Positions 1 to 48,831 of a DNA stretch of 64,000 bases are shown here, one piece after another. A program made the position numbers and the translations under genes. The notes below the pieces were generated by a model. The model searched no databases and had not been told where the DNA came from. It was given only the letters and a program-made list of their open reading frames with translations. The DNA is taken from NCBI GenBank assembly GCA_963717505.1, contig OY970342.1:2208001-2272000 (forward strand), in the 5' to 3' direction. Numbering within the stretch: position 1 is the stretch's first letter; each line of letters opens with the position of its first letter. The stretch is from Candidatus Eiseniibacteriota bacterium. Lineage in GTDB: Bacteria; Eisenbacteria; RBG-16-71-46.

Positions 1-3000
1 CGTTCGCCGCACAGCACGGTCTTGTGCTCATGCGCGACTACCCACGTATCGGCGTGACCCGTTTTCGACTGCCGGCGGGAATCTCCACCGAGCAATCAAT
101 CCAGCAATTCCGCGGCGACGATCGTGTCGTGTTCGCGCAGCCGAACTTCATCTACACCGCGAGTTCCTACCCTTCCGACACAGAACTCATTCCCCAGCAA
201 TGGGGCGTGTTCTCCACCTTCCTTCCGTCCCTGTGGCGCCCCGGAACCGGGGCCAGCGGGAAGGTGATTGCCTTCTTGGACTCTGGTGTGGAGTCGGCTC
301 ACGACGAGCTGCTAGGCGGACTCTGGACGAACGGGGCAGAGGTCGCTGGCAACAACATCGATGACGATGACAATGGATACATCGACGACATCCACGGCTG
401 GAACTTCGTTGCCGAGACGGCGAACACCGCCGACGACAACGGTCACGGCACACACGTGGTGGGCATTGCCTGCGCTCGCGCTCACAATGAAGGCATCGTC
501 GGTGTGGCACACGCAGCGACCTACCTACCGCTCAAGATTCTGAATCAATTCGGGACTGGCGTGAGCAGCGATATCGCCGCGGCCCTCGAATACGCCGCTG
601 GGGAGCAGCCCAACGTCATCAACATGAGCTTCAACGTCGCAGCCACGCCGTTGGAGCCCGATGCGGACTGCATCGTGCGCGAGCAGATCGCGACGGCCCT
701 CGAGGCTGGCTGCGTGCTAGTGGGGGCGGCGGGAAATTCGGGTGGTCTAGTGCAATTGCCGGCAGCTTTTCCGGGTGTCATTTCGGTCGGAGCTTCTACC
801 CGTTTTGGAGGCGTGTGGAGTCACTCCAGCCACGGCTTCGACCTCGATGTCGTGGCGCCGGGAGTGGACATCTACAGCACATGGCTCGGCAACACGTTCA
901 AGGCCGACAGTGGTACGTCGGAGGCCGCACCGTTCGTGAGTGGAATATGTGCACTCCTGCTGGAGCAATTCCCCGAAACAAAACCATGGGAGATGGAGCG
1001 CTACATTCGGACGCTGACTCGCAACTTGGACGGCAAGCTTCCAAGCGTCACCGGGAATCTCGACGGGTACGGGCTGGTCTCTTTCGGAACGATCTCGGAC
1101 TTCAGCAATGGCCCGCTACCCGACGCCTGGAGCCTCGACGATTTTTTCGAGTTCCTTGGTTCGGACTGGAGCGGAGAGTCGGAGGTGGCCGATGACGGGA
1201 CGACCGAGAAGCCGGATTGCGCAGACCAGATTCGGGACCTCGATGGACTTATGAATTCCTCCGGGCACGATGCCTTCGACGATGGCATGTTCAACGCGTC
1301 GGTGCCCAATCTTCCGCTGCTCCATGCGCATCTCTACGCCGGCCCGCCCCCTCCGATGAAAGTCAGGGTCGGCGTCGGCGACGTAAGCGGGAACCGCTGG
1401 GACAACGACACGCAGGTCGGGTTGCGCAGTTGGGTCGACTGGAACAGCGACAACACATTCACCGACCCGGCGGAGCGCATCTTGAGCGCGGTCTCGACTC
1501 CGCGAACATGGGGCGGAGACGACACGACGCTCGCGAGACCGTGGACGCCGAGCAATGAACACCCTCGCGGCAATCCGCTGCGCGTGCGCACACGGCTGTT
1601 CGGCCCTGGTACTACCTCGGCCCTCCCGGGCGGCATGCAAGAGTTTGGCGAGGTCGAGGACCAAGCCGTACTCAATTTCGTCGAAGATTTCGACGTGCCG
1701 GTTCCGCACCCGGTGGCGTACGCCACGTTGGGCGGGGCGTGGGGCCTGGTCAACGACAACGCGCCCAGCGCCTGCCCAGCCGTGGCCCCGCCGGTCATGC
1801 CGGATCCTCCAGTGAATCGCGGTGTGTTCAAGACGGCATTCGTGCACAAGACGTTTTGCCCGGGAAGCCAGATCGATAACCTGACTCTCCCGGAGTTGCC
1901 GGCGCCCGCGTTGGACCTACGCGAGTTGACCAAATGCTACGCGCGCGTCTGGTACGCGCACGCAATCGATCAAACTTGCATGCCCGGCGCACACGACGAC
2001 TGCAAGATCGTCCTCAAGTGCTTCGACGCCAACATGAATCCCTTACCCGACGTGACGCTGTTCGACTTTCCGGATCCGTTTTGCCCCACCGCGGGATATG
2101 CCACTGGCGAGACGCCACTGCTCGATCTTTCCCCCTACGTCGGCGGATACGCGCGGCTCGACGTCGTCCACGACGCCACCGACCTCTACGACGCACTGGC
2201 GATCGACGACGTGCGCATCTGGGGCTGGGACGACGAGGTCCCGAAACCAACGAAGATTGACGCGGCGAGCATGAACAAAGTTCGCGTAGCAACGATGTCG
2301 TGGAAACATCCACTGGAGAACGGGGCGCCGATGCCATCCGACCCGAACATTGAGCTGTATGGGGCGCGCCTCTGGACTGGCGACGATAACTGGGACACCG
2401 CCTATCGACTGACGCCGCGCGACTTCGTGCCCGGCTCGAGCTTCCCGGAAGCCGGTCCTCCAGGAGGCATGGCGACCGAATCGTTCCGGGTCCCCTCGAT
2501 CTTCGTCAACTACAAGGTCGGGTTGCGCGCCCAAGACGAGGAGGCTCTCGAGGGTTCGGACCTGCCGAAGCCATTCGCGACCGGAGGCACATTCAACCCC
2601 CTCGCCATCGCACTCAGTCCCGTGGTGGGTGGACAACCTGGCGACACGGTCAAGGTTGCCGTCATGCTCGTGAACGCCGGCAACGCCCTCGATGCGATCC
2701 TAGCCGATGCTTTCGACCGGCGCAGTTGGGCGCTGTGCCCTCATCGCTGGGCTGACGTTCTGGATCCGGGCGGTGTTTCAGTGGAGTCGCTTGAAGTGGC
2801 GATTCCTATGAGTGCGACGCCCGCGGACACCGACACTGTCTTCATCGCCACAACAAGTCTATCGGACGAGACCAAGACCGGTGGCGCGTTCGCGCTGGTG
2901 ATTGTTGGCTCAGGTGGGCCGTTGCCTAGTCCGCCTGACACTGTCGCCACGCCCGTGCCGTGCGCCAACATGTACGTGACCAACGGCATCGTGTACGACA

Positions 3001-5276
3001 CGGTTCGCAAGGGGAGCAGGATCTATGTCGGTGGTTTCTTTGAATACGTCGGCCCCCCAACGGGGAACGCCGCCGCGCTGGACGCCACGACCGCTGACCT
3101 CCTCTTCCCGAGCATGATCTCCGGCCAGGTGTACGCGGTAGAGCCGGATGGAGTGGGAGGTTGGTACATCGGCGGCATCTTCCATCATGTGGCGGGATTG
3201 CCTCGTGAAAACCTCGTGCACATCCTGGCGAACAGTACGATTGACGAATGGAATCCCGGGACGAACGGAGTCGTCAACGCCTTGAAAGTCAGTGGCGGCA
3301 GGCTCTACGTGGGAGGCAACTTCTCTCAGGTCGGCGGTCAGAATCACGCTGGTCTGGCAGCGATCGAGCTTGCGACCGGCCAGGTGACGTCGTGGGGTCC
3401 GACAACGCTAACAGGAGGCGGCATCAAAGCCATTCTCGTGCTCGGATCGAGAGTGTACGTAGGTGGCTCGTTCACAAGTATCGGCGGACGGCCATCGCAA
3501 AACCTCGCCTGGGTCGACGCAACCAGTGGCGCCGTTAACCCATGGATGCCTAATCCAAACGCTGAAGTCAATCACTTGGCATTCGGAACAAGTGGTGGCG
3601 CCACCATCTATGTATCAGGCTCATTCACTATGATCGATGGTCAGCCTCGCAACTATGTCGCAGCCTTCGCTTTTGCATCACAAAACCTAACGACCTGGAA
3701 TCCCAACCCAAATGCGATCGTCGCGACAGTACTCGTGAGTGGCTCCACGGTCTACGTCGGCGGCAATTTCGGCATTATCGGCGGCCAGCCACGGGCGGGC
3801 ATCGCCGCCCTCGATGCCGGAACGGGTGCCGCTACATCTTGGAACCCAGGCACCGACGGCACGGTGTTCGCGCTGGCGTTGAATGGAGCAACTATCTTTG
3901 CTGGCGGCCTGTTCACGACCGCCGGTGGGCAGCCCCGTCGCGGGCTTGCGGCGCTCGATGCGACTACCGGGAATGCCGAAGCGTGGGTCGCCCATGCCTC
4001 GGACGAGGTCGGCTGCCTCGCCACGGCCGGGAATTCCGTCTACGTGGGAGGTCTTTTCGGCAGCATCGGAGGCGAGAACCGGAAGAACCTCATCTCCCTT
4101 GACGCGAACACCGGACGAGTGACCAGCTGGAACCCCGATGTTAGCGGTCAGGTCGCCGCGATCGTTGTCAACGACAACACCGTCTACATCGGTGGCTTGT
4201 TCGGTTTCGTGGGCTCACAGCCCCGCAACCGCATTGCATCGATCGACGCCACGACGGGAGCGGTCAACCCCTGGAACCCGAGTGCGAACGGAGCGGTGAA
4301 CACGCTGGCGCTTGGCGGTACGACGCTCTATGCGGGCGGACTCTTCACCAGCATTGGCGGGCAGGCGCGCAACCGTCTCGCTGCGCTCAACATCGGAAGC
4401 GGGCTTGCAACGCCTTGGAACCCAAACGCCAACCTCTTCGTCAACAAGATCCAGTTGGAGGGTGAAAAGCTTTATGTCTGCGGAGCATTCACGACCATCG
4501 GCGGCCAACCCCGAAATCGCATTGCGGCGCTCATCACCAGTTCCGGAAACCCCACAGCGTGGAATCCGAACGCTAACGGCACAATCTCCACGCTAAGCAC
4601 CCTCGACGGCGATGTTTACGCTGGCGGGAGCTTCACGACCATCGGCGGCGCCGCTCGCAGATACCTGGCGGCGCTGGACAGCGCGTCCGGGAATGCACTC
4701 GTTTGGAACCCTGACCCCGACGGCCCCGTCCGTTCTCTTGCGATGCGGCCCGGGATTGTAGATGTCGGTGGAAACTTCACACAAATTGCTGGCCAAGCCC
4801 GAACTTATTTCGCCGAGCTCACTGCAAGTTCTGGACTCCCCACAGAGCGGAACCCAATCCTAGACGGACCCGTGTACGCATTGGCTGCCGATCCCTATAA
4901 CATTTTCATCGGCGGCGATTTCTACACGGTGTCCGACCTCTCCCGCAGATGCTATGCGTGCCTCAACCTCTTTCCACCTCCGGTTGGTGTCCCCCGACAG
5001 ACGTCAAAGTTCGTGCAGGCCCTCTTCAGTCGTGTTTCACCGAACCCAAGCACTAGGGGAACACGAATCGAATACGCACTGCCGCTTGCCGCCGATGTCC
5101 GTATTTGCATCTTCGACATCCAGGGCCGCACGGTGGCTCGGCTAGTCGATGAGAGGAAACAGGCGGGATCGCATTCGCTGACCTGGGATGACCCGCGATG
5201 CGGCCCGGGAGTCTATCTGGTTCACTTAGAGGCTGCGGGCATGAAGTCGACGCAGCGGCTGGTGAAGATTCGCTAG
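1..5276 (+). CDS. Secreted S8 (subtilisin-like) serine peptidase with GEVED domain, long beta-propeller-like repeat region and T9SS/FlgD-like C-terminal domain; 5'-truncated by the window edge
   Basis: Frame is open from position 3. Catalytic motifs LDSG, HGTHVVG, AAGN and SGTSEAAP; FGEVED; many WNPN(A/P)NG..V.AL...G..LY.GG.FT.IGG repeats; C-terminal PNP...IFDIQGRTVARL...GVYLVHL. Confidence 0.9.
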   Translation, partial: FAAQHGLVLMRDYPRIGVTRFRLPAGISTEQSIQQFRGDDRVVFAQPNFIYTASSYPSDTELIPQQWGVFSTFLPSLWRPGTGASGKVIAFLDSGVESAHDELLGGLWTNGAEVAGNNIDDDDNGYIDDIHGWNFVAETANTADDNGHGTHVVGIACARAHNEGIVGVAHAATYLPLKILNQFGTGVSSDIAAALEYAAGEQPNVINMSFNVAATPLEPDADCIVREQIATALEAGCVLVGAAGNSGGLVQLPAAFPGVISVGASTRFGGVWSHSSHGFDLDVVAPGVDIYSTWLGNTFKADSGTSEAAPFVSGICALLLEQFPETKPWEMERYIRTLTRNLDGKLPSVTGNLDGYGLVSFGTISDFSNGPLPDAWSLDDFFEFLGSDWSGESEVADDGTTEKPDCADQIRDLDGLMNSSGHDAFDDGMFNASVPNLPLLHAHLYAGPPPPMKVRVGVGDVSGNRWDNDTQVGLRSWVDWNSDNTFTDPAERILSAVSTPRTWGGDDTTLARPWTPSNEHPRGNPLRVRTRLFGPGTTSALPGGMQEFGEVEDQAVLNFVEDFDVPVPHPVAYATLGGAWGLVNDNAPSACPAVAPPVMPDPPVNRGVFKTAFVHKTFCPGSQIDNLTLPELPAPALDLRELTKCYARVWYAHAIDQTCMPGAHDDCKIVLKCFDANMNPLPDVTLFDFPDPFCPTAGYATGETPLLDLSPYVGGYARLDVVHDATDLYDALAIDDVRIWGWDDEVPKPTKIDAASMNKVRVATMSWKHPLENGAPMPSDPNIELYGARLWTGDDNWDTAYRLTPRDFVPGSSFPEAGPPGGMATESFRVPSIFVNYKVGLRAQDEEALEGSDLPKPFATGGTFNPLAIALSPVVGGQPGDTVKVAVMLVNAGNALDAILADAFDRRSWALCPHRWADVLDPGGVSVESLEVAIPMSATPADTDTVFIATTSLSDETKTGGAFALVIVGSGGPLPSPPDTVATPVPCANMYVTNGIVYDTVRKGSRIYVGGFFEYVGPPTGNAAALDATTADLLFPSMISGQVYAVEPDGVGGWYIGGIFHHVAGLPRENLVHILANSTIDEWNPGTNGVVNALKVSGGRLYVGGNFSQVGGQNHAGLAAIELATGQVTSWGPTTLTGGGIKAILVLGSRVYVGGSFTSIGGRPSQNLAWVDATSGAVNPWMPNPNAEVNHLAFGTSGGATIYVSGSFTMIDGQPRNYVAAFAFASQNLTTWNPNPNAIVATVLVSGSTVYVGGNFGIIGGQPRAGIAALDAGTGAATSWNPGTDGTVFALALNGATIFAGGLFTTAGGQPRRGLAALDATTGNAEAWVAHASDEVGCLATAGNSVYVGGLFGSIGGENRKNLISLDANTGRVTSWNPDVSGQVAAIVVNDNTVYIGGLFGFVGSQPRNRIASIDATTGAVNPWNPSANGAVNTLALGGTTLYAGGLFTSIGGQARNRLAALNIGSGLATPWNPNANLFVNKIQLEGEKLYVCGAFTTIGGQPRNRIAALITSSGNPTAWNPNANGTISTLSTLDGDVYAGGSFTTIGGAARRYLAALDSASGNALVWNPDPDGPVRSLAMRPGIVDVGGNFTQIAGQARTYFAELTASSGLPTERNPILDGPVYALAADPYNIFIGGDFYTVSDLSRRCYACLNLFPPPVGVPRQTSKFVQALFSRVSPNPSTRGTRIEYALPLAADVRICIFDIQGRTVARLVDERKQAGSHSLTWDDPRCGPGVYLVHLEAAGMKSTQRLVKIR

Positions 5277-5280
5277 GGGA

Positions 5281-5301
5281 CTGAGGGAGTTGGCGGTGTA
5301 G
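5281..5301 (+). repeat. Shortest copy of the DUF2779-like 3'-end repeat (CTGAGGGAGTTGG, reads LRELAV*)
   Basis: CTGAGGGAGTTGG also occurs at 5527-5539 and 7210-7222; this copy starts 4 nt after the S8 stop codon. Confidence 0.6.
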
Positions 5302-5310
5302 CGCCCCACT

Positions 5311-5559
5311 GGCAGCTTCAGCATTAAGCACGTGCTCAACCCCCTGGTGCCCGACCTGACGTACAACGACCTGGTGATCGTCGACGGGCTGGTGGCGAGC
5401 GTCGAGATCGCGCGGCTGTTGTTCGTGGCGCACAAGATACCGGTCGAGGAGCGGGACCGGTTGCGGGCGGATCTGCTGGCGTATTGCGAGCGGGACACGT
5501 GGGCGATGGTGAGGTTGATGGGGAGGCTGAGGGAGTTGGCCGGGATTTCTCAGGATTGA
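5311..5559 (+). pseudogene. 3' fragment of a DUF2779-like gene (copy A)
   Basis: GSFSIKHVLNPLVPDLTYNDL...LLAYCERDTWAMVRL resembles the C-terminus of DUF2779-family proteins; no 5' part; 229 nt nearly identical to 6994-7222. Confidence 0.75.
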
Positions 5560-5635
5560 GCTTCACCTGCAAGTCTGCGAGCAGGTCACCGAAATCCAGA
5601 CAACAAACCGGCGGCCGCAGTGGCCTATCTTTGAC

Positions 5636-5664
5636 TTGACCTCCAACGATGGCAGGCCTAGCGT
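5636..5664 (+). promoter_or_regulatory. Putative sigma70 promoter for the 5862 gene
   Basis: TTGACC-N17-TAGCGT. Confidence 0.4.
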
Positions 5665-5861
5665 CCTATGCGGCAGGGATGGGCCGCCCCCACCTTTCGT
5701 CTCCTGCCTTTGGCTCCATCGCAGATCAGTCGCGCATGGCTGATTACGACGACGGGCAGAGTGGCGCTGGCGCTCAGATGCTTGGACGCGAGCTCAAGCC
5801 AATCGTGTCGTGCATGTCTTATTGCCGCCCGGCATCTGCAGTACGCAAAGGAGTGTGACCA

Positions 5862-6731
5862 ATGTGGCCTCGTACGCGAGCAAGTTGCATGTTCCTTTTC
5901 TCACTGCTGGCCATTTCGGTGAGCCCATGTGTGAGTCAGGGAGCGGAAAAACACCGGCAATCCATCAAGAACAACACTGGCGGCGACGTGAACGACCTCA
6001 AGTTGAGGTTCACAGACGACTTGAGCAGTAAGCCGAAGTTGTGGCATACGGGTGGCGCGGTCGACGTGAACGACAACGATAGGAACGATGCCAGCGAGCG
6101 AGTGGATGCGAGTTCGCAGTCCGCCAGCAACTTTCAGGCCGATTGGGCGCAAAGCACATTTGGCCGAATTCCGAACGGCGGAATAGCAGAAGTTGACTTT
6201 GAGGGAGCGCCGGAGATAGACGCGGATCACGCCAATTCCCAGTGGACACTAGACGGCGTGAACAAGGGAGCGCCTGTGGTTGTCGGCGAGCCCATGCATA
6301 TTGCGTTCAACCTAGGTACGAGCGAAGCATCCGTGACATTTGTAAACAACGGAGCGACGGCCATTACTTACTCGGACATTCAACTGTTCAAGAACAACAG
6401 CGTTGCACAGTTTGACTTGTTGCAGTTCATGGAAGCAACTGGCACGGCTGTGTCAGCGCCGAGCACGATCGTGCTCAATCCCGGCCAAGTATCGACCATC
6501 TCGCTCGGCATTGTTCAGATTGGCTCGACCTACCAACTCGCCATCGCTCGGGTTTCCGAGAACGCCAATCCGAGTGTCTTGTACAGTCTTGTTACCGGAG
6601 CGACACCGCTCGAAGCAATGCCTGCAACGTCACGATGGGGCGTAGGTGCCCTGATGGTTCTTCTCTTGTCGTCGGGCGTTTGGATGGTTGTCATGGTGCG
6701 GAAGGCGGCTACTGATACCACGACGACGTAA
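5862..6731 (+). CDS. Secreted hypothetical protein with an IPTL-CTERM-like C-terminal sorting signal
   Basis: AAGGAG upstream; N-terminal hydrophobic signal; C-terminus MPATSRWG + TM helix + basic residues, resembling IPTLSxWG-TM-RR; many A/T-ending codons. Confidence 0.7.
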   Translation: MWPRTRASCMFLFSLLAISVSPCVSQGAEKHRQSIKNNTGGDVNDLKLRFTDDLSSKPKLWHTGGAVDVNDNDRNDASERVDASSQSASNFQADWAQSTFGRIPNGGIAEVDFEGAPEIDADHANSQWTLDGVNKGAPVVVGEPMHIAFNLGTSEASVTFVNNGATAITYSDIQLFKNNSVAQFDLLQFMEATGTAVSAPSTIVLNPGQVSTISLGIVQIGSTYQLAIARVSENANPSVLYSLVTGATPLEAMPATSRWGVGALMVLLLSSGVWMVVMVRKAATDTTTT

Positions 6732-6763
6732 CTCGTAAGCGTCTGTAGTTCAGTGTCGGTGCA

Positions 6764-7254
6764 CAATTGCTTGCCGAGGGGCCGGCCGGCCGCGTCGCAA
6801 GCTGGCGGAGGCGCTGATTGCGGCGACGCGCGAGGCGCGGAAGATCGTCACCTACTCGGCGTTCGAGAAGACGCGGATTGCCGAGCTACAGCATCTGGTG
6901 CCGGAGTTGGCTGGGCCCTTGGAAGAACTGCTGGCGAAGCTCGTGGACTTGCTGCCGGTGGTGCGGGGGCATGTGTACCACCCCGGCTTCAAGGGGAGCT
7001 TCAGCATCAAGGACGTGCTGAATCCGCTGGTGCCGGACCTGACGTACAACGACCTGGTGATTGTCGACGGGCTGGTGGCGAGTGTCGAGATCGCGCGGCT
7101 GTTGTTCGTGGCGCACAAGATACCGGTCGAGGAGCGGGACCGGCTGCGGGCGGATCTGCTGGCGTATTGCGAGCGGGATACGTGGGCGATGGTGAGGCTG
7201 ATGGGGAGGCTGAGGGAGTTGGGGGCCAATTTAGCGGGGCCGGCGAGCCCTTGA
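6764..7254 (+). pseudogene. Longer 3' fragment of a DUF2779-like gene (copy B), 5'-truncated, with a probable frameshift near 6790
   Basis: LAEGPA in one frame, then PRRKLAEALIAA...IVTYSAFEKTRIAEL...YHPGFKGSFSIKDVL...YCERDTWAMV in another. Confidence 0.75.
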
Positions 7255-7269
7255 CGGATGGACCCTTCC

Positions 7270-7287
7270 TGCGTACACATGTACGCA
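7270..7287. promoter_or_regulatory. Palindromic operator candidate abutting the start codon of the HTH-nucleotidyltransferase gene
   Basis: TGCGTAC-ACAT-GTACGCA perfect inverted repeat; TTGACG at 7251-7256. Confidence 0.55.
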
Positions 7288-7976
7288 TGAAGCGTACGCG
7301 ACGTGGCGCCGACGCCCTGTTCCCAAAGGTGAGGAAGCAGATTCTGTCTGCCCTCCTCATGAGCCCCAAGCGGTCGTGGTTCCTTAGCGACCTGGCCCGC
7401 CACCTTCGAACCCCCAAGACGAGCCTCCAACGAGAGCTCGCCAATCTCGAGGGGGCCGGCATCATCGTACGCGACGTGCAGGGTCGACAGGTTTACTACC
7501 GGGCAAATCCTTCCTGTCCGTTCCTTCCGGAACTCCAGGGGCTCTTCGCCAAGACCGCGGGGCTGGTCGACGTGATCCGGGACTCTCTCGCCAAGCTCGA
7601 TGGGCGTATCCAACTCGCCTTCTTGTACGGTTCAGTTGCCAAAGGCGAGGAAGTGACGGAGAGCGACGTCGATCTCATGGTGATCGGAAAGGTCGGTCTC
7701 GCGGATCTGGCCATGCCCATGCGGGCGGCACGCGAGCAACTGTCGCGTGATGTCTACCCAACGGTGTTCTCGCTGCAGGAATTCGTTTCGAAGGCAGGGG
7801 AGGCCGGTTTCGTTAGGACCGTGCTGGATGGCCCGAAGCTCTTCATCGTGGGAAGCGAAGATGTCCTGGAAAAAGCTCTTGGAACAGCGGCGCGTGGCTC
7901 GGCAGAAGGTCACACCGTCCGAGATAAGAACGCAGCGGGAAATCGCCGCTCGCGCACTCGCCGACGCCGTAATTGA
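7287..7976 (+). CDS. Winged-HTH + minimal nucleotidyltransferase (MNT) antitoxin-like protein
   Basis: N-terminal LSDLARHL..PKTSLQRELANLEGAGII..GRQVYYRAN; MNT motif AFLYGSVAKG..SDVDLMVIG; start taken as ATG 7287, not 6753. Confidence 0.85.
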   Translation: MKRTRRGADALFPKVRKQILSALLMSPKRSWFLSDLARHLRTPKTSLQRELANLEGAGIIVRDVQGRQVYYRANPSCPFLPELQGLFAKTAGLVDVIRDSLAKLDGRIQLAFLYGSVAKGEEVTESDVDLMVIGKVGLADLAMPMRAAREQLSRDVYPTVFSLQEFVSKAGEAGFVRTVLDGPKLFIVGSEDVLEKALGTAARGSAEGHTVRDKNAAGNRRSRTRRRRN

Positions 7977-8307
7977 GGCAGTGTCCGACGACGGGCGATT
8001 CGACCGGGCCTACGATGCAGCCAGGGCTCTGGCGACCCTGGCCATCCGCGCGTCGGGTTACCGCGTGAAGGGAACGGGCGGAGGCCACTACAATACGTTC
8101 CTGGCACTCGAGGCTGTGGATCCGGCACGATTCTCCCCGTTTTCCGCCTACTTCAACCTGTGCCGTGAGAAGCGCAATGAGCTGAACTACGTGCATGCAG
8201 GAGTGGTTTCGCGCAGCGAGCTCGACGAAATCCTGGAGCAGACGCCGCTGTTCCGGGAGGCTGTCGAGGATTGGCTCCGGGAGAAGCATCCGGAATTGGC
8301 CTCATAG
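7861..8307 (+). CDS. HEPN-like partner (putative toxin) of the MNT gene
   Basis: Overlaps the MNT gene; AYDAARALA..IRASGYRV..GGHYNTF..REKRNELNY pattern of MNT-associated HEPN-like proteins. Confidence 0.7.
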   Translation: MSWKKLLEQRRVARQKVTPSEIRTQREIAARALADAVIEAVSDDGRFDRAYDAARALATLAIRASGYRVKGTGGGHYNTFLALEAVDPARFSPFSAYFNLCREKRNELNYVHAGVVSRSELDEILEQTPLFREAVEDWLREKHPELAS

Positions 8308-8382
8308 CCCGGCGTTCGGTCGTCGGCATCGAGGTTCTTGCAGGTCCGCCAGATCACGCAGTAAGCAGGGAAAGAGGAAGAC

Positions 8383-8760
8383 ATGACCACCCAGACCGAC
8401 CTCAAACTCACGCGTGTCGGCTACCTCATGATCCCCGTCCGCGACCTCGCCCGCGCGCTCGCCTTCTACCGCGACTCGCTCGGCCTGCCGGTCCACTTCG
8501 CCAACGACGAGTTCGCGTTCCTGAATGGCGGCGGCGTGGCGCTCGCGCTCCGGCACGCGAAGGACTTCAAGGCCGAGCCCGAAACCTCGGCGATCGAGGT
8601 GGTATTCGAGGTCGAGAACATCGATGCGGCCTACGAGTCGCTACGCGCCCGCGGCGTCTCGTTCCGCATTGCTCCGAAAGAGGCGACCGGCGACAAGTTC
8701 GTTGCCGACTTCCGCGACCCGGACGGGCACGTGCTCAGCATCTTTGGGCCAAAGGCTTGA
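8383..8760 (+). CDS. VOC/glyoxalase family protein
   Basis: VRDLARALAFYRDSLGL ... FEVENIDAAYESLRARGV ... FRDPDGHVL; GAGGA RBS. Confidence 0.9.
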   Translation: MTTQTDLKLTRVGYLMIPVRDLARALAFYRDSLGLPVHFANDEFAFLNGGGVALALRHAKDFKAEPETSAIEVVFEVENIDAAYESLRARGVSFRIAPKEATGDKFVADFRDPDGHVLSIFGPKA

Positions 8761-8808
8761 TCCGCGCGAGCTAATGAAAGTGCCGCGCGGGATCCGGCGC
8801 CCCGCCGT

Positions 8809-9780
8809 TCACTTCCCCAGCAGGGCGCGGGCGCGCGCCTCGCAAAACGGCCGCATCGGGCAGCGCACGCGGATCGAGGCGTTGTCGTCGAGCCCGACCG
8901 ATGCGTATCGATCGGCCGAATCGGCCCACACCGTGGCGACGGTCGCCCCGAGCGCGTGGAGCCTGAGTGCTGCGGCCATGTTGGCGCCCGAGCTGATGCC
9001 CACGCAGTAGCCGAAGTGAGCGCGGATGCGCGCGGCCGTAGCGCGTGCCTCAGCGCTGCTCACGGCGAGGATCTCGTCGACGGCCCCGAGATCCACGAGG
9101 TCGGGCACGAATCCGTCGCCGATCCCCATGATGTCGTGATCTCCGGCCGGGCCGCCGCGCATGACCTGCGACTCCTCGGGCTCGACGGCAACCAGTCGCA
9201 CGTTCGGCATGGCCGCGCGCAGCGCCTGGCCCACGCCCATCAGCGTGCCGCCGGTGCCCACGCCCGCGACGAAGTAGGCCAGCCGATCACACCCGTTCTC
9301 GCGCAGCTGTGCCACCAGCTCGACGCCCGTCGTCGTCGCATGGCACCGGGTGTTGTCGGGGTTGCCGAACTGATCGGGAACGTAGTACCCGCGCCGGCCG
9401 CGGTATTCGTCGCGCAGGCGCACCGCTCCTTCGAACCCGGATGCTTTGGGCGTGAGTCGCACTTCGGCGCCGAGTCGCTCGAGCATGCGCCGGCGCTCGA
9501 CGCTCATGTGCTCGGGCATGAAGATCATCACGCGGTGCCCGAGCGTGCGCCCGACCCAGGCGAGCGCGATGCCGGTGTTGCCCGACGTGGTTTCGACGAT
9601 GACGTCACGGGGCTTGAGATCACCGCGCGCCGCGGCTTCGATCAGCATGAACTTGGCGATGCGATCCTTGACGCTGCCCCCCGGGTTGGCGCACTCGAGC
9701 TTGGCGTAGACGCCGTCGGCGACGACCAGCGGCGTGTGGCCGATCCGGCTCAGCTCGGTCGAGGCTTCAGGAGTCGACAT
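8809..9780 (-). CDS. PLP-dependent cysteine synthase family (CysK/CysM-like) protein
   Basis: IGHTPLV, KLECANPGGSVKDR (PLP lysine), TSGNTG, DQFGNPDN, GVGTGGT, IMGIG, GISSGAN. Confidence 0.88.
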   Translation of the reverse strand: MSTPEASTELSRIGHTPLVVADGVYAKLECANPGGSVKDRIAKFMLIEAAARGDLKPRDVIVETTSGNTGIALAWVGRTLGHRVMIFMPEHMSVERRRMLERLGAEVRLTPKASGFEGAVRLRDEYRGRRGYYVPDQFGNPDNTRCHATTTGVELVAQLRENGCDRLAYFVAGVGTGGTLMGVGQALRAAMPNVRLVAVEPEESQVMRGGPAGDHDIMGIGDGFVPDLVDLGAVDEILAVSSAEARATAARIRAHFGYCVGISSGANMAAALRLHALGATVATVWADSADRYASVGLDDNASIRVRCPMRPFCEARARALLGK

Positions 9781-11188
9781 GGATCACGTCCTTTGCTCCA
9801 GAAGTGCGGTTCGCCGCGCCCAGAGGAGCGAGGCGCGCCGTGAAGTGGCGGAGGTGGGGCATCTCTTCGACGATCGCGAAGCCGCGGAGCGAGTCCTTGC
9901 GCCGGACGACGTCCTCGGCGACCTCGATCACGTAGTCCATGTGGCTCTGCGTGTAGACGCGCCTCGGGATCGCGAGACGCAGCAGCTCGAGCGGCGCCAG
10001 GCGCTCGCGCCGCGTGACCGGGTCCAGGCCGCCGAACATGAGCGACCCGACCTCGACGCCGCGGATCCCGCCCTCTTCATAGAAGGCGCACGCCAGCGCC
10101 TGGGCCGGGAACTCGGCCGGCGGGATGTGCGGGAGAAACGCTCCGGCATCGATGAAGATCGCATGGCCGCCCGGCGGCCGGACGATTGGCAAGCCCGCCG
10201 CCATCAGCCCTTCTCCCAGGTAGCGGATCGAAGCGATGCGATATCTAAGGTAGTCCTCGTCGACCACCTCCCTGAGCCCGACGGCGATCGCCTCGAGGTC
10301 GCGGCCCGCCAGGCCGCCATAGGTCGGGAAGCCTTCGGTGAGGATGAGCAACTCTTCCTCCTGGCGGGAGAGCCGGTCGTCGTTCGAAGCCAGGAAGCCG
10401 CCAATGTTGGCGAGACCGTCCTTCTTGGCGCTGAACGTGGCGCCGTCGGCGAGCGAGAACATCTCCTGCGCGATCGATTCCACGCTGCGGTTCTCGTACC
10501 CGGGTTCGCGCAGCTTGATGAAGTAGGCGTTCTCGGCGAACCGGCAGGCGTCGAGATAGAAGGGCACGCCGCGCGCGCGACTCAGGGCGCTCGCCGCGCG
10601 CAGGTTCTCGAGTGAAGCCGGCTGGCCGCCGCCCGAGTTGTTGGTGACGGTCGCGAGCACGCACGCGACGTTGCTGGTTCGATCGCCGAGGATCCGCTCG
10701 AGCGCCACGAGATCGAGGTTGCCCTTGAACGGGTGCTCCTCTGCGGTGCGCATCACCTCGGGGATCGGGATGTCGATGGCGCGCCCGCCCAGCGCTTCGA
10801 CGTTGGCGCGCGTGGTATCGAAGTGCGTGTTGGCGACCACGCTCCGGCCCGAGACGCCGAGACAGGAGAACAGGATGCGCTCCGCGGCGCGCCCCTGGTG
10901 CGTCGGAATGATGTGGCGAAACCCGGTCAGCTCCCGCACGCGCCGCTCGAACACGAACCACGATCGGGCGCCGGCGTACGACTCGTCGCCGCGCATGATC
11001 CCTGCCCATTGCTCCGACGACATGGCGCCGGTCCCCGAGTCGGTCAGGAGGTCGATCAGGATCGCCTCGGCCGGGATGCGGAACAGGTTCCAATCCGCGC
11101 GCGCGAGCAAATCGCGGCGTTCCGCCGGCGTGGTCATGCGCAGCGGCTCGACCGACTTGATGCGGAAGGGCTCGATGATGGTCTTCAT
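9767..11188 (-). CDS. tnaA: Tryptophanase (beta-eliminating lyase family)
   Basis: EPFRIKSVE, IDLLTDSGT, GDESYAG, HQGRAAE, SAKKD (PLP lysine), RLAIPRRVYTQSH. LRHFTARL carries His as in tryptophanase rather than the Phe of tyrosine phenol-lyase. Confidence 0.88.
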   Translation of the reverse strand: MKTIIEPFRIKSVEPLRMTTPAERRDLLARADWNLFRIPAEAILIDLLTDSGTGAMSSEQWAGIMRGDESYAGARSWFVFERRVRELTGFRHIIPTHQGRAAERILFSCLGVSGRSVVANTHFDTTRANVEALGGRAIDIPIPEVMRTAEEHPFKGNLDLVALERILGDRTSNVACVLATVTNNSGGGQPASLENLRAASALSRARGVPFYLDACRFAENAYFIKLREPGYENRSVESIAQEMFSLADGATFSAKKDGLANIGGFLASNDDRLSRQEEELLILTEGFPTYGGLAGRDLEAIAVGLREVVDEDYLRYRIASIRYLGEGLMAAGLPIVRPPGGHAIFIDAGAFLPHIPPAEFPAQALACAFYEEGGIRGVEVGSLMFGGLDPVTRRERLAPLELLRLAIPRRVYTQSHMDYVIEVAEDVVRRKDSLRGFAIVEEMPHLRHFTARLAPLGAANRTSGAKDVIHVDS

Positions 11189-11212
11189 GCCGGGTTCCCG
11201 AGGCGATGTGTC

Positions 11213-11228
11213 CGCAAGAGTGGTGCCA
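11213..11228 (-). promoter_or_regulatory. Sigma54 (-24/-12) promoter of tnaA
   Basis: Minus strand reads TGGCAC-CACTC-TTGCG, 24 nt upstream of the tnaA ATG. Confidence 0.75.
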
Positions 11229-11297
11229 TGGGAGCACAGCCACCCTGGCGTCGGAACCCTATGTGCCAGGCCCTCGGAGTGGCTGCGGGGACGGTCG

Positions 11298-11321
11298 TCG
11301 TGGCAGCCGGTTCTGCCACGA
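11298..11321. promoter_or_regulatory. Palindrome, candidate upstream activator sequence
   Basis: TCGTGGCAG-N6-CTGCCACGA perfect 9-bp inverted repeat about 70-95 nt upstream of the sigma54 site. Confidence 0.5.
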
Positions 11322-11609
11322 TGTCAGACCCAGCCCCCGCATCGCGTCGGCGGCCGAGATGTTCGGCTACGGCCGTAGCGCCCGACATGGCCACACCGGC
11401 GGATCAGGCGCTGGAGAAGGCCCTTGCGGCGGCACGCGCGCATTGAGGGGCCGAAGAGCGTTGGGCCCGAGGCACATTCCTCTTCTGAGTCCCCTGGATT
11501 CGCAGTAGCCTTATGGGGCTCCCGGCCGCGAGCCCGGAGCCTCGAATCGCAGCAGGCCCAACCGCGAACCCTCCGCGCTGCTCCCCGCGCGGCTGGCCTG
11601 GAGGCGCCA

Positions 11610-14390
11610 ATGAACAGACTTCTCTGTTCCCTCGGAGCGTCGCTGAGTGCAGCCATCCTTCTCTGCAGTGCGGCGCAAGCACAGTGTCCCTGGGACGATC
11701 CCGCCACATATCCCGGCGACGGGAGTCCGTTCCATGTCGTGATTGCCGATATCAACAACGACGGCATCCAGGACGTAGTCCGGACGAACAATGGGGCCAG
11801 AACGGTTAGCGTGTACTACGGGAATGGGGTCGGATCTTTCACCGGCCCGAACAATCGTCCGGTCCGCCCGGGGAATGGCCCTCTGACTGTCGCCGATTTC
11901 AACCGCGACGGTCATCTCGACATCGTGACCAACAGCACCATCGGCGACGTCGTTTCGGTGGTCTACGGGCTGGGCAACAACGCGTTCCAGGACGCGGTCT
12001 TCTACGCGACGGGGGATGCGCCCTTTGGCGTCACCCACGGAGACTTCCACGGGGATGGCATCCTCGATCTTGCCGTGACCAGTCTTGGCGAGGACGGGAT
12101 CACGATCCTCAGGGGAATCGCGACCGGCGGCTTCATTGCCGTGTTGAGTTATTCCACGGGAATGGATCCCTACGACATCAAGGTGGGCGACTTCAACGAG
12201 GACGGCATTTCCGACTTGGTCGTGACGAACTCGCAGAGCCACGACATCTCGATCCTCCGCGGGCGGGGAGCCGGTGGCGTGGGGAACGGCACGTTCGATC
12301 CTGAAGTCCGCATTGCCGCCGGTATGTTCCCCTACAGCGTCTCGATCGCAGACTTCGACGGCGACGGGATCTCCGATCTCGCGGTGGCGAATGGTGGGAG
12401 CGGGTCGGTCACGTTGTTCAAGGGTGGCGGTTCCGGTGGGGTCGGTGACGGCACCTTCCAGGAGGCGAATGTCATTGGGGGCTTGGGACAGCCTCGGTCC
12501 GTCGCTGCCGGCGACCTCAATGGCGACACGATCCCTGATCTCGCAGTCGCGGACTACTTCGGTTCGATGCATATCCTGATCGGGAATGGCAACGGAACGT
12601 TCCAGGGTCCAACGGTCGTTCCGGCCGGCCAGAACCCAACCGACGTCGCCCTCGGGGACTTCAACCTGGATGGCACGCTGGACGCCGTCGTCGCCAACTA
12701 CATGACCGACTACATGACGGTCTTCATGAGCTTCTGCCCGACGGGGCCACCGCCCGAGGTGCACTCGCTATCACCGGCGGCCGGCCTGCCGGGCGCCCAG
12801 GTGACCATCGCCGGATCGAACTTCGTGAACGTCGCGTCCGTCCGGTTCAATGGCCTGGAGGCCGCATACACGGTTCTGTCCGACTCGGAGATCCGGGCGA
12901 CCGTTCCTCCCCTGGCTCTCTCGGGGCCTGTACGGGTGCATACGGCGAACGGAACCGACCTGGGCCCCGTTTTCACTGTGGCCCCGCGGATCACGGGTTT
13001 CGCGCCTTCCCAGGCGCCAGCGGGCACCATCGTCAGCATCAACGGAGTCAACTTCATCGGGACGACGGCCGTCGAGTTCAACGGCACTCCCGCGTCGTTC
13101 GAGGTCAGCTCCGAGCTGTTGCTCAACGCCGTGGTTCCGAGCGGTGCCACGAGCGGCCCGATTTCCGTGACGAATCCTGGTGGCACGGCGCTGTCGACGC
13201 AGTCGTTCACCGTCGGGATTTCCGTCAGCGGCGGAATCAACTTGTCGTGGGACGACTGCGGGCCTGCGGGGACTTCGAACAAGAACTTCGCGTGTGATGT
13301 CAGTACCGGCGCCCCGTTCACTGCCGTCGGCTCGTTCATGCCTGCGACGCTGTTGCCGGAGTTCCTGGGCGCGTCCATCGACATCCGGATCGAAGCCGAG
13401 GGATCGGAGCTGCCCGACTGGTGGAAGCATGGGACGGGAGAGTGCCGGGGCACCACCGGACTCGCCACCAACTTCGACTTCACTACGGGCCCGTTCACTT
13501 GCGCGGACTTCAACGTCGGCCAGGCCGCCGGCGGTTTCGCGTACGACGTCGGTTTCGGCGGTCCCAACCGTGCGCGGCTCCGCATCCAGTACGCCGTACC
13601 GTTTGAGAATCGTAGCGAGGTCCTGACGGGCGTGGAGTACTACGCGTTCAAGGTCAACTTCCTGCGTTCGAAGACCACTGGGACGGGTGCGTGCTCCGGC
13701 TGCGGAGCCGCGCTGTGTATTCGCCTGGTCGAGATCCAGCTCTTCCAGCCGCCCGACCAACTCAACGATCCCAGATATTTTGATCCGATCAACAACAGCG
13801 TCGTCAGCTGGCAGAGCCCGACGGTCAACTGCGCGCTCGCGACCCCGGTCCTGGTCTCGGTGGTGACTGCCGAAGCGACCTCGGATGGCGTGCGACTCGT
13901 CTGGCAGACCGAGGATGTCGAGCACGCGACCGTCCAGCGCCGCGAGGCCGAGGGTCCGTGGCGGCAGATCGCTTCGCTCTACCCCGACGGTCAGCAGCGT
14001 GTGACCTACGAGGACACCGACGTCACGCCGGGTGCCACCTACGAATACCGACTCGGAATCCCGGCGCCGACCGGCGAGTTCTACGTGGGTGAAACCCGAG
14101 TCACGGTACCGTTGGCTGCGCCTGCGGCGCTTTCGCTGGCGCGGGTGGCGTGGAACGGCTCGGCCGGAGCGCTGACGGTGTCGTTGTCGCTGCCGCGCGC
14201 GGGCTCGGCGTCGTTCGAGGTGTTCGACATCAACGGCCGGCGAGTGGGCGAGCAGCGCCTCGAAGGGCTGGGCGCCGGGGAGCACGAACTCAGCGTGCGA
14301 CCCTCGCGAACTCTTGATCCCGGCGTGTTCTTCGCTCGGGTGACGCAGGACGGAAAGGGTGCGAGCCGGCGGTTCATCGTCGTGAAGTGA
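11610..14390 (+). CDS. Secreted FG-GAP/VCBS repeat protein with two IPT/TIG domains, a Cys-rich domain and a T9SS-like C-terminal domain
   Basis: GGAGG RBS and signal peptide; repeated DFNxDGxxDLxV; IPT-like PAAGLPGAQVTIAGSNF..SGPVRV; C-terminal FEVFDINGRRV..PGVFFARV. Confidence 0.85.
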   Translation: MNRLLCSLGASLSAAILLCSAAQAQCPWDDPATYPGDGSPFHVVIADINNDGIQDVVRTNNGARTVSVYYGNGVGSFTGPNNRPVRPGNGPLTVADFNRDGHLDIVTNSTIGDVVSVVYGLGNNAFQDAVFYATGDAPFGVTHGDFHGDGILDLAVTSLGEDGITILRGIATGGFIAVLSYSTGMDPYDIKVGDFNEDGISDLVVTNSQSHDISILRGRGAGGVGNGTFDPEVRIAAGMFPYSVSIADFDGDGISDLAVANGGSGSVTLFKGGGSGGVGDGTFQEANVIGGLGQPRSVAAGDLNGDTIPDLAVADYFGSMHILIGNGNGTFQGPTVVPAGQNPTDVALGDFNLDGTLDAVVANYMTDYMTVFMSFCPTGPPPEVHSLSPAAGLPGAQVTIAGSNFVNVASVRFNGLEAAYTVLSDSEIRATVPPLALSGPVRVHTANGTDLGPVFTVAPRITGFAPSQAPAGTIVSINGVNFIGTTAVEFNGTPASFEVSSELLLNAVVPSGATSGPISVTNPGGTALSTQSFTVGISVSGGINLSWDDCGPAGTSNKNFACDVSTGAPFTAVGSFMPATLLPEFLGASIDIRIEAEGSELPDWWKHGTGECRGTTGLATNFDFTTGPFTCADFNVGQAAGGFAYDVGFGGPNRARLRIQYAVPFENRSEVLTGVEYYAFKVNFLRSKTTGTGACSGCGAALCIRLVEIQLFQPPDQLNDPRYFDPINNSVVSWQSPTVNCALATPVLVSVVTAEATSDGVRLVWQTEDVEHATVQRREAEGPWRQIASLYPDGQQRVTYEDTDVTPGATYEYRLGIPAPTGEFYVGETRVTVPLAAPAALSLARVAWNGSAGALTVSLSLPRAGSASFEVFDINGRRVGEQRLEGLGAGEHELSVRPSRTLDPGVFFARVTQDGKGASRRFIVVK

Positions 14391-26443: not shown

Positions 26444-28852
26444 CTAAGGCACCGCTACGACGTTCCCCGACGTTCCCGTGACGCCACTCGGCGCAGCACC
26501 CGATCCGCCCACGCCGCCCGGTCCGCCGATCCCCGGTCCGCCGATCAGATAGGTCGGACCCACGATTGACGGGGCCGAGGCGATGGCGCGCGCGATTCCA
26601 GCGCTCCAGCCGCCGGCTCCGCCCGATCCGCCGCCGCCCGTGCCACCGTTCCCTCCGCGTCCACCCGCGCCACCGGCCCCAGAATCACCGGCACCCAGGC
26701 CACCGGGTCCGCCATTGCCGCCGGCGCCGCCTGCACCGCCGGCTCCACCACCGCCGCCAGTTCCGCCGGTCCCCGTCGCAAACGAGCACGCGTTGAAGAT
26801 GGGTGAGGAGCTGACGAGGAAGACCGCGAATGACGCACCGCCACCAGTGCCGCCCGATCCGCCCGTGCCGTACCCGCCGCCGCCGCCGCCACCGCCACCA
26901 CCGCCGCCCATATCTGGCAGGCAGGGTCCTGCGCCGCTGTTGAGGCCGCCGCCACCACCGCCGCCGCCCGAAGCACCCTGGCCGCCGGTGCCTGAGCCAC
27001 CGATATTTCCAGCACCCGGAGTCCAGTTGCCGCCCATCACCGAGCCGGCTGCTCCAACCGGGCCGGCCGATCCGGGGCTCCCCGCGCAACCTGCCATGCC
27101 GACTCCGCCGTTACCGGCGACCACGAAGCACGCGCTCGATTTGGCGCCTCCCGCGCCGCCAGTGCCGCAACCGAGGGGGGGGTGCAGGACGACCGCACTC
27201 TCTCCGGGAAGACCCGCATTGTTGTAACCACCCTGGCCGCCCTGTACGCCCCTGGTTCCCCCGGGAGAACCAAGGTCGCCGCCACCCGCGGGGCCACCGC
27301 CGCTAGGGCTATCCGAGGCCCCGTTTCCTCCCGCGGGCGCGTTTGGTGCCGCGCCGCCTGGGATTCCGGCTGCGCCGACAGTGCCTGGTGCGCCGTTGCC
27401 CGCCACGAACTTGCAGTCGACGAATCGCAGGGCGTTGGAGCTGTTCTGTGTACGCAGCGCGATCGAGTTTGCGCCCGGCGCCACCGCGTTCGCGGCGCGC
27501 ACGTCGAGCCCGCTGATGATGGTCTGCACCACGATGTTGTTTGCGGCCGCCGGCACGCTGCCGACGTTGACGATGCTGTACGCACCGGGCGTTCGCACCC
27601 AGGTCGCCGGGTTGAAGCCGCCGTGCACCTCGATGCCGCCGGTGAAGGTCGGCACCTCGCCATACGAGTCGTTGGAAACCAGAACCTTGGGGGCGCACGA
27701 TGAGCTCACCGCCGCGGTGGCGGCATTGATTCCCGCCGCGATGGTCAGGAACGGGGAGGCCTTGCTGCCGTTGCCCACGGCCGAGCCGGTCGACGCCGAC
27801 ACATAGAAGGTGTCGGGGTCGTAGATCGTGAAGTTCACGACCGCGAAGCCGAATCCGCCGTCGTCGTCCCGCACGGTGAGCCGCGCACGGTAGGCGCCCG
27901 CCGAATAGAGATGGGTCGTGTTGCCGCTGACGGCGCTGCTGTAGTCGTTGATACCGTCGTCCTCGAAATCCCAGTCGTAGCGGACGATCGATCCGTCGGG
28001 ATCGCTACCCGTTCCGTTGAGCGAGACCGGGTCGAGCGCGCACGAGCCGACGACGTTTGCGCTCGCCGTCGGCGGGATGTTGCGGTTGAGCAGTAGTTCC
28101 ATGGAGCCGACGTCCACCGAGTCGCCGGCGAAGCTCAGCGTGCCACCGCTCGTGGCGTCGAGGAATCCGCCGTGTATGCCGGTGAGAACATGCGTTCCAA
28201 TCGGCACGTCGGTCATCACCCAATCGCCCGCGGCGTCGGTCACCGCCAGGAACGAGGTGCCATCCACATAGACCACGATTCCGGAATGGGACGCTTCGCC
28301 TTCGAGTGTCGCGACGCCCGAAAACGTGCCGGTCGGGAGCAGGCTGATGTTGACGAACGTGGTGTCGGCGGTGATCGTCGGAATGCCGATGCGCTCGAAG
28401 CCCGCCTGATGGTGGCGCGTGGTGCCGGTGACCAGGTAGTCGCCGACCGGCACGTCGTTGAAGGCGAACCGGCCCTGGCCGTCGGACACGGTCACGCGGA
28501 GGTTCTCGGAGTCGACGCCGGGGTCGAGGCCGGGCTTGCCGGCCGACAACGCGCTCGAGCCTGTGCCCACGACCTGCGGCCGCACGCTGAACGGCGCGTC
28601 GATCGTGCGACGCACCGCCGCCGATAGGCCGTTCACGACCGGCTCGAGAGTCACCACCACGCCCGCGCCGGGAGCATTGTTCTGGAGCCGGATGACCCCC
28701 GCGACCACGGCGCCGTTCGGCGTTTCGGCGATCGGTTCCAGAACACTCTGGCGACCGCAACCCGCGGCGAAGAACAGCGCCGCGATCAGGAGCGATCCGG
28801 CAGCTCCCCACGAAACCAGCAACGATGTCGAGCGGCGATGCGCGTGCGTCAT
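26444..28852 (-). CDS. Lipoprotein with carboxypeptidase-regulatory-like domains, PKD domain, DUF1565-like module and Gly-rich (PGRS-like) C-terminus
   Basis: Lipobox FAAGC; SDPDGSIVRYDWDF..YRARLTVRDDDG (PKD); FYVSASTG..GSKASPFLTIAAGI; long GGxGG tracts. Confidence 0.82.
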   Translation of the reverse strand: MTHAHRRSTSLLVSWGAAGSLLIAALFFAAGCGRQSVLEPIAETPNGAVVAGVIRLQNNAPGAGVVVTLEPVVNGLSAAVRRTIDAPFSVRPQVVGTGSSALSAGKPGLDPGVDSENLRVTVSDGQGRFAFNDVPVGDYLVTGTTRHHQAGFERIGIPTITADTTFVNISLLPTGTFSGVATLEGEASHSGIVVYVDGTSFLAVTDAAGDWVMTDVPIGTHVLTGIHGGFLDATSGGTLSFAGDSVDVGSMELLLNRNIPPTASANVVGSCALDPVSLNGTGSDPDGSIVRYDWDFEDDGINDYSSAVSGNTTHLYSAGAYRARLTVRDDDGGFGFAVVNFTIYDPDTFYVSASTGSAVGNGSKASPFLTIAAGINAATAAVSSSCAPKVLVSNDSYGEVPTFTGGIEVHGGFNPATWVRTPGAYSIVNVGSVPAAANNIVVQTIISGLDVRAANAVAPGANSIALRTQNSSNALRFVDCKFVAGNGAPGTVGAAGIPGGAAPNAPAGGNGASDSPSGGGPAGGGDLGSPGGTRGVQGGQGGYNNAGLPGESAVVLHPPLGCGTGGAGGAKSSACFVVAGNGGVGMAGCAGSPGSAGPVGAAGSVMGGNWTPGAGNIGGSGTGGQGASGGGGGGGGLNSGAGPCLPDMGGGGGGGGGGGGYGTGGSGGTGGGASFAVFLVSSSPIFNACSFATGTGGTGGGGGAGGAGGAGGNGGPGGLGAGDSGAGGAGGRGGNGGTGGGGSGGAGGWSAGIARAIASAPSIVGPTYLIGGPGIGGPGGVGGSGAAPSGVTGTSGNVVAVP

Positions 28853-40125: not shown

Positions 40126-40157
40126 GCCCATGCATTCGGCCGTGCGAGGTATGTGAC

Positions 40158-40757: not shown

Positions 40758-40766
40758 CCTCGTTGC

Positions 40767-42497: not shown

Positions 42498-42534
42498 CCC
42501 CTAGGGCCTTCGGGCTCCGATCCGGTTTTTCCGC

Positions 42535-42563
42535 TTGCCCGCGGCCTGGGGTAGGCCTAGCCT
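42535..42563 (+). promoter_or_regulatory. Putative sigma70 promoter for the peptide/regulator unit
   Basis: TTGCCC-N17-TAGCCT. Confidence 0.4.
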
Positions 42564-42761
42564 TGACGGGCGTTCCGTTAGCCCCCGACCCCTAAGCCGG
42601 GATGCCACATGGCCGAATCCCCTCATCCCACACGGAACCTGTTCGCGACCCCATCGGGGCAGACTCGTGCTGCCCGGGCGGGGTCTCGGTTTCTTCCGGC
42701 GGCTCTGCCCCCGAAGCCGAGCCGCGCAGCACGGAGAGGGGATCTCCGAAGGAGCGAGGCG

Positions 42762-45490: not shown

Positions 45491-45521
45491 GTTCGACATC
45501 CGGCCGCAGCGGGAGGGAGCC

Positions 45522-47570: not shown

Positions 47571-47595
47571 GCGGGCGACCGCTCCAGACGCCCTC

Positions 47596-47623: not shown

Positions 47624-47691
47624 GGCGCCACCCGAAGGAACGGGACCCCGTCCCGGCACATGACGAAGCCCCTGCGAAGGAGACGCAGACC

Positions 47692-48831
<1,140 letters not shown>

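Follow-up and report, generated by a model that had tools for sequence, protein, structure and literature searches.

Relics of a DUF2779 gene end alternating with unrelated cargo in a Candidatus Eiseniibacteriota genome: probable footprints of sequential displacement

Among the closest described counterparts of the locus reported here are the rhs loci, in which direct repeats of varying length and dissimilar tips are made by homologous excision and re-integration of circles, according to the part of PMC2935791 that treats them. For the effector-immunity arrays of the Vibrio T6SS, homology-facilitated illegitimate recombination (HFIR) has been proposed, and in the same part of PMC5361080 the authors also remark on a resemblance to integrons without an integrase.

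The window analyzed here is the whole stretch of 64,000 nucleotides taken from contig OY970342.1 of assembly GCA_963717505.1. In it, an S8 peptidase, an IPTL-CTERM-like protein, and an MNT/HEPN pair are interspersed with three 3' relics of a DUF2779 gene (13, 229, and ~455 nt). Like the rhs arrays portrayed in that part of PMC2935791, the locus contains variable-length repeats of the conserved part of a gene, each followed by unrelated sequence and some of them frameshifted, and no integrase was matched among the window ORFs scanned. The payload differs, since in rhs it is an in-frame tip fused to the core, whereas the window copies vary in just a few tail residues, have unrelated genes past the stop codon as payload, and are anchored in a nuclease gene. 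As in the Vibrio T6SS arrays, sequential insertion would move older genes to the back of the array, but those arrays, as treated in that portion of PMC5361080, retain immunity genes under clear selection, whereas the cargo of the window is mixed. Rapid gene turnover beside an anchor gene with no recognizable mobile element is shared with the horizontal transfer hotspots described in the pertinent part of PMC5635113, where recombination occurs at flanking genes. In contrast to these hotspots, the anchor in the window is an accessory gene, the neighbors are variable on both sides, and duplicated fragments are left behind. In short, the window holds co-oriented 3' fragments of one gene that vary in length and are followed by dissimilar sequence, as in rhs/CDI loci, but its tails are only 2-11 residues long and its cargo (S8, IPTL-like, MNT/HEPN) does not form an in-frame variable tip with an immunity gene. 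The locus thus works like an rhs/T6SS displacement array and falls outside that class on payload.

The features of the array and its right boundary are, in order:

1..5276, + strand: S8 peptidase (Pfam Peptidase_S8) that also has GEVED, beta-propeller repeats and, at the C-terminus, a weak domain of FlgD/T9SS type
5281..5301, + strand: shortest DUF2779 3' relic (13 nt, 5281-5293) with its own tail (AV, stop)
5294..5310, + strand: joint of 17 nt between the short relic and copy A (sequence comparison)
5311..5559, + strand: copy A, DUF2779 residues ~408-484 (5311-5539) plus tail, stop at 5559 (sequence match)
5862..6731, + strand: 289-aa protein, probably secreted, with an IPTL-CTERM-like end (a lead only)
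6766..7254, + strand: copy B, DUF2779 residues ~333-484 (6766-7222) plus tail, stop at 7254 (Pfam, DNA profile)
7262..7295, no strand: imperfect palindrome of 34 nt over the MNT start (self-BLAST, 82% self-complementary)
7287..7976, + strand: HTH-MNT nucleotidyltransferase, antitoxin-like (PADLOC PDC-M05A, E 3e-61)
7861..8307, + strand: HEPN SAV_6107-like protein (PADLOC PDC-M05B, E 5.5e-38)
8383..11188, both strands: VOC/glyoxalase gene (+), then convergent PALP (cysK-like) and beta-eliminating lyase (tnaA-like) genes (-)

The S8 peptidase reading frame, the most proximal cargo in view, runs off the window edge at position 1, and the genes at 8383..11188, with host-like GC, form the right boundary of the array. 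The gene for the 289-aa protein has a GC content of 55.5%, against ~66% elsewhere in the window. Its product had no match in the Pfam scan, and its IPTL-CTERM label derives from a first Atlas match of 0.86 to a family found on 18% of members. The palindrome at 7262..7295 is likely an autoregulatory operator. Promoter and terminator scans of 5200-8850 were uninformative, finding 1 and 4 sites where shuffled sequence gave 0.7 and 2.5.

Comparison of the sequences bore out the initial observation of three copies of one gene end between unrelated cargo, with small corrections to their bounds: the short copy ends at 5293 and not at 5294, since base 5294 matches copy A only, and copy B begins at 6766. 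The 13-mer CTGAGGGAGTTGG occurs at exactly three places in the 64 kb on either strand (5281, 5527, and 7210), against a chance expectation of 0.003 per window, and self-comparison of the window, with minima of 28 nt and 84% identity, yielded a single direct repeat, the 229-nt A/B pair. Copy A was assigned to the family by 99% tblastn identity to P0001, the best match (89% identical) among the best 120 of 1914 proteins matched. Copy B matched Pfam DUF2779 (PF11074) with an E value of 8.5e-16 and 58.8 bits (cut-off 23.3), and a DNA profile placed it at 6766-7222, starting near residue 333 of the 487-aa gene. Past the shared end the tails differ, consisting of AV and a stop codon in the short relic, six residues in copy A, and eleven residues in copy B, and two residues beyond the supposed end point are common to copy A and P0001. 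The gap from the preceding stop codon is 4 nt for the short relic and ~35 nt for copy B. Such relics, beginning close behind preceding stop codons, are consistent with trimming to whole genes.

Copy A (5311-5539) and the corresponding stretch of copy B (6994-7222) differ at 12 of 229 nucleotides, 11 of them synonymous, exactly as counted in the sequence-only reading. The synonymous share is far above the neutral expectation of 29% (p=9e-6), and the sole nonsynonymous difference (H/D) lies at a position that is variable among homologues. Because 11 of the 12 differences are synonymous, the relics derive from functional alleles, different ones as that reading had proposed, and a decaying local duplication is ruled out. 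The differences are also unevenly spread: the first 45 nt contain seven, among them five C/G transversions, and the last 180 nt, over which the copies are 97% identical, contain five, all C/T (Fisher p=0.003; p=0.001 against a 16% share in 72 pairs of relatives). A mosaic of this kind is expected where the 5' part of a relic comes from a donor and its 3' part from the resident. Since natural alleles also show uneven divergence (e.g. L004/L002 and L027/L017), the mosaic may predate displacement. Copy B carries five rare residues in its 5' 67 codons, where 118 homologues average 1.7, and also a one-base frameshift near 6790; its 3' 75 codons are free of rare residues. The identity of its 5' part to P0001 (0.84) is no outlier, 52 of 144 comparable pairs being as low. 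The joint at 5294-5310 weakly resembles the DUF2779 sequence just upstream of the start of copy A (25 of 1000 random 17-mers score as well) and is a possible microhomology joint.

Outside the window, a frameshifted 5' half of a DUF2779 gene was found on a contig of the same length as the source. The reading frame of copy B corresponds to P0122, from a 4,162,540-bp contig, and P0249, also from a 4,162,540-bp contig, covers DUF2779 residues 1-197 at 88% identity and is absent from the window. It continues in a shifted frame, where 15 of 22 residues match the shifted frame of relatives, against at most five in frame. As P0249 lies outside the window on a contig of the same size, a 5' half of DUF2779 exists beyond the window. 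No matching C-terminal reading frame from the contig of P0249 was present among the best 120 matches of each protein search. The tail of copy B occurs in two of the 360 fetched proteins, P0122 and P0342. The tail of P0342 is exactly that of copy B, and, its start residue aside, it departs from copy B at seven positions in 150 aa. Residues 100 to ~270 are covered by P0327, whose contig, like that of P0342, measures 28,605 bp. If the equal contig sizes link these two proteins, the gene with tail B is apparently full-length in a close relative, and the simplest reading, resting on the same equality of sizes, is that tail B once belonged to a full-length resident gene; P0342 could itself be a relic.

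Full-length DUF2779 relatives are ~487 aa long (1914 matches among 8000 candidates scored, of which the best 120 were examined). In the relevant part of PMC3985635 and in section 10 of PMC13621843, DUF2779/PF11074 is a PD-(D/E)XK/Cas4-like domain fused to a DEDD exonuclease. Residues D101/E114/K116 and D292/E294/D392/D469 were invariant in 30 of 30 aligned proteins. Compared with these nucleases the window relics are 3' parts of the fusion and lack catalytic motif I. Copy A is without the first two DEDD acidic residues, so it cannot be an active nuclease, and since both long relics start after residue 330, neither can be active. Those portions of the two papers are silent on arrays or relics, and no report of DUF2779 arrays was found in the open-access papers searched. 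Short DUF2779 proteins from the protein search were kept out of the relic count, contig ends and frameshifts explaining most of them. P0121, which has an unrelated N-terminus, is present on four contigs, and scored at most 6 of 15 in the frameshift test, may be a relic. The family is present on 31 plasmid records, and none of the 10 plasmid loci examined contained a relic of the gene.

To survey related loci, we scanned GTDB, where 177 of 269 stretches were confirmed, and used the best 79 loci, from Gemmatimonadota taxa plus one 'bacterium HR33'. Ranking was by full-length query, which disfavors relic-only loci such as that of the window; neighbor families came from our own ORF calls, and all 79 loci were chosen for DUF2779, without control loci. 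The sequence-only reading had held that constant gene content downstream of DUF2779 in relatives would speak against it; instead, the first downstream genes fell into 63 families among 75, and the first upstream genes into 51 families among 71. Even in 19 non-independent allele pairs (at least 88% nucleotide identity), the two alleles shared the family of the next gene in 4 of 19 cases and that of the previous gene in 6 of 17. Applied to ~1 Mb (66 of the 79 loci have at least 2 kb downstream), a weight matrix built on the 3' end found a DUF2779 3' relic in one locus, L054; the matrix misses the window's own 13-nt copy, so equally short relics escape it. In L054 the intact gene is followed by a 238-aa cargo protein and, 21 nt after the preceding stop codon, by a 3' relic of 32 nt whose tail is new (score 32.7, against 18.2 for the runner-up). 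L054 has the intact upstream gene of rhs/CDI loci; for the array of the window, what was observed is the frameshifted 5' half on a contig of equal size. Weak 3'-end self-matches in L004, L017, L030, and L073 (E 0.006-0.03) were dropped as chance, and the two that were inspected (L004 and L030) fall within coding sequence.

Self-comparison revealed repeats in 21 of the 79 loci. By inspection, seven of these hold relics of some gene end or start (L005, L007, L008, L009, L052, L053, and L054), the other 14 having been excluded on visual inspection, their repeats being low-complexity, REP-like, or of paralogues. Two are mirror cases: in L007 a 462-nt DUF2779 5' relic lies upstream, followed by AbiEii and then the intact gene, and in L053 a pafB-like start relic is followed by a HipA pair and the intact gene. 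L052 has two pafC-like 3' relics that stop at one point and have different tails. The relic is a Uma2 start in L008 and an amidohydrolase end in L009, and these two loci together with L005 (3 of 7) lack simple bracket geometry. Tandem whole DUF2779 copies were present in two of the 79 loci, L001 (72% identical) and L031 (81% identical, with its promoter). The pattern is therefore not special to the DUF2779 end, since other gene ends and 5' ends show it too, and accessory regions of these bacteria seem to be generally prone to relic formation, as far as loci all chosen for DUF2779 can represent them.

Tandem cargo punctuated by repeats is also known from integrons, from tandem att-site islands, which occur at tRNA or rlmH ends, and from the repeated 3'-CS associated with ISCR elements. 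These differ from the window, in which the scans revealed neither IntI nor an attC-like site, a constant att length, or a rolling-circle transposase. As originally noted, no integrase or transposase is in view: none was matched among the window ORFs scanned (14, 32, and 28 ORFs in three scans), and these ORFs included no IntI. No attC-like pattern was found in 5201-8400 on either strand, nor any GTTRRRY on the + strand, and Rfam gave 0 matches at E<=1 in 1-12000. Two other candidates were rejected: the sole tRNA of the window lies at 58118, and phage carriage had no match. Membership in the integrons fails on the tests run here. The idea of a fixed 3' anchor point fared no better, because what follows the REL motif is variable both in the 120 proteins and in the GTDB loci examined; the common 3' stop is the end of protein conservation, with no demonstrated att site. 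Of the proposed hotspot of tandem addition, the tandem growth is supported and the integron-like, special 3' anchor is not, a DUF2779 3' relic having been found in only one of the 79 loci.

We consider it probable that the relics are footprints of sequential displacement through homologous recombination within DUF2779, for which no dedicated recombinase would be needed. DNA from a related strain, comprising a DUF2779 3' part and its own downstream genes, would recombine by homology into the resident gene, making it whole again with a different tail and different neighbors, and pushing the former resident 3' end, with its former neighbors, one step downstream. The order of events, oldest first, would be copy B with MNT/HEPN, copy A with the IPTL-like gene, and then the 13-nt relic, the S8 peptidase being the newest cargo in view. 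The incoming DNA may have integrated as a circle by a single crossover, as in the rhs model, or through a homologous anchor and an illegitimate far joint, as in HFIR. The mosaic relics slightly favor the circle, and the weak likeness at the 5294-5310 joint slightly favors HFIR; the two routes give the same picture and are inseparable at this locus. Toxin-antitoxin cargo (MNT/HEPN, AbiEii, HipA) may help such arrays to resist looping out.

In place of displacement, whole DUF2779 genes, each bringing its promoter, might come in time and again as mobile cargo, redundant copies then being eroded from the 5' side by deletions. The tandem whole copies in L001 and L031, the plasmid records, and the variability of both flanks are in line with such arrivals, but copies A and B are far closer over their last 180 nt than the tandem whole copies are, show no nonsynonymous decay there, and share one end with the third relic, so that we find this course of events rather unlikely. 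We regard as very unlikely a series of site-specific integrative elements with an att site in the 3' end of DUF2779 and a replacement fragment carried in by each of them. Their integrase could lie upstream of the window, and they would account for the common 3' end point, the different tails, and the tandem cargo, but the 5' boundaries of the relics are inconstant (unlike an att core), tails vary in all homologues, and the residues shared by copy A and P0001 extend past the supposed end point. No integrase was found among the window ORFs scanned or among representatives of the 59 commonest neighbor clusters of the 79 loci; a tyrosine recombinase lay near DUF2779 in 1 of 8 annotated plasmid loci.

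A chimeric assembly of strain variants, which the sequence-only reading had raised against itself, deserves next to no credence. The source does seem to contain indel errors or recent frameshifts (P0249), but its contig is 4.16 Mb long, the repeats are short, with a divergence of 5%, the 5' junctions join non-homologous sequence, which assemblers do not do, and the same geometry recurs in independent assemblies (L054, L052, and L007). It is also hard to believe that the DUF2779 nuclease (Cas4-like plus DEDD, under WYL/PafBC control) itself promotes DNA capture beside its gene or regulon. Its catalytic residues are kept in all 30 aligned proteins, a PafBC-type motif and pafBC-like genes accompany it in some loci (given below), and several relics involve DUF2779 or pafB/C; against this, the loci were preselected for DUF2779, relics of unrelated genes occur as well, the plasmid loci held no relic, and there is no evidence for action in cis.

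Using the PafBC consensus from the pertinent part of PMC8635444 as a motif, we found it upstream of 12 of 78 DUF2779 starts, compared with 20 of 707 other genes (p=1.8e-5; shuffle mean 0.3). WYL genes of the pafBC-like type were present in 16 of the 79 loci and directly upstream of DUF2779 in 7 of 71, and WYL genes adjoin DUF2779 in 3 of 8 annotated plasmid loci. Together, the motif and the WYL neighbors suggest that DUF2779 may be a DNA-damage-inducible nuclease.

Displacement through DUF2779 would make this locus a clean, single-contig record of accessory-gene addition without a mobile element, and a model known from toxin loci would then also apply to an ordinary nuclease gene whose cargo is arbitrary. 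Relics of gene ends could serve as a computable signature for ordering acquisitions and gauging their route across uncultured phyla. Apart from this, the DUF2779-WYL/PafBC link offers a lead on what a widespread uncharacterized nuclease does. It is a very doubtful but larger idea that, in Gemmatimonadota and related uncultured phyla, WYL/PafBC damage-regulon genes (DUF2779, pafBC, Uma2) act as landing pads for integrase-free capture, with the DUF2779 nuclease processing the incoming DNA. If true, this would couple damage induction to the accretion of defense and secreted-protein genes.

DUF2779 genes, which encode a Cas4-like and DEDD nuclease, occur in several copies in some relatives. Two of the related loci, L030 and L031, share 94% identity over 5.7 kb. 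Beyond the matching stretch L031 carries a second DUF2779 gene (81% identical) that has a promoter of its own. The order of the DUF4153 and AbiEii units is swapped between the two loci. Loci L001 and L007 belong to one MAG and between them contain DUF2779 at full length three times and once as a 5' fragment; SNF2 helicase/DUF499 and type III restriction-modification genes lie alongside.

A protein homologue found on four contigs, P0121, has an unrelated N-terminus followed by the C-terminal 90 amino acids of DUF2779. The join falls a few codons upstream of the point at which copy A, the relic at window 5311-5539, starts, and P0121 is possibly another DUF2779 relic. At locus L052, DUF2779 and three further genes are bracketed by two relics of a different gene, which have a common end and differing tails:

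L052:9714-9929, pafC-like 3' relic
L052:13691-13730, pafC-like 3' relic

No intact pafC-like gene was predicted in the 21 kb of sequence that this locus comprises.

An imperfect inverted repeat (window 6769-6802) lies at the 5' junction of copy B, the longest relic, with the frameshift falling inside it. A palindrome at window 7262-7295 spans the MNT start and is probably an autoregulation site. REP-like palindromes flank DUF2779 on both sides at locus L056:

L056:2014-2126, REP-like palindrome
L056:3684-3713, REP-like palindrome
L056:10933-10963, REP-like palindrome

Elsewhere in the window, sigma-54 regulator, TPR and FG-GAP genes intervene between cinA/2'-5' RNA ligase and recA-recX (38869-50154), and a DUF6338 gene lies between recA and recX. 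Two other genes were recorded, one in the window and one at locus L036:

window 26444-28852, minus strand, PKD-domain protein of 802 aa with a long Gly-rich low-complexity stretch (~26500-27000)
L036:20042-20551, bacterial Ras/Roc-family small GTPase, with genes for an OmpA-domain protein and a PP2C on its two sides

Among upstream regions of the related loci, a PafBC-type promoter motif preceded 12 of 78 DUF2779 starts, compared with 20 of 707 other genes. The motif lies upstream of DUF2779 at these loci:

L015, L026, L028, L030, L031, L036, L043, L051, L053, L057, L060

In related loci DUF2779 is also often adjoined by a pafBC-like operon. Together, the motif excess and the neighbouring operon suggest a WYL-controlled DNA-damage regulon in Gemmatimonadota.
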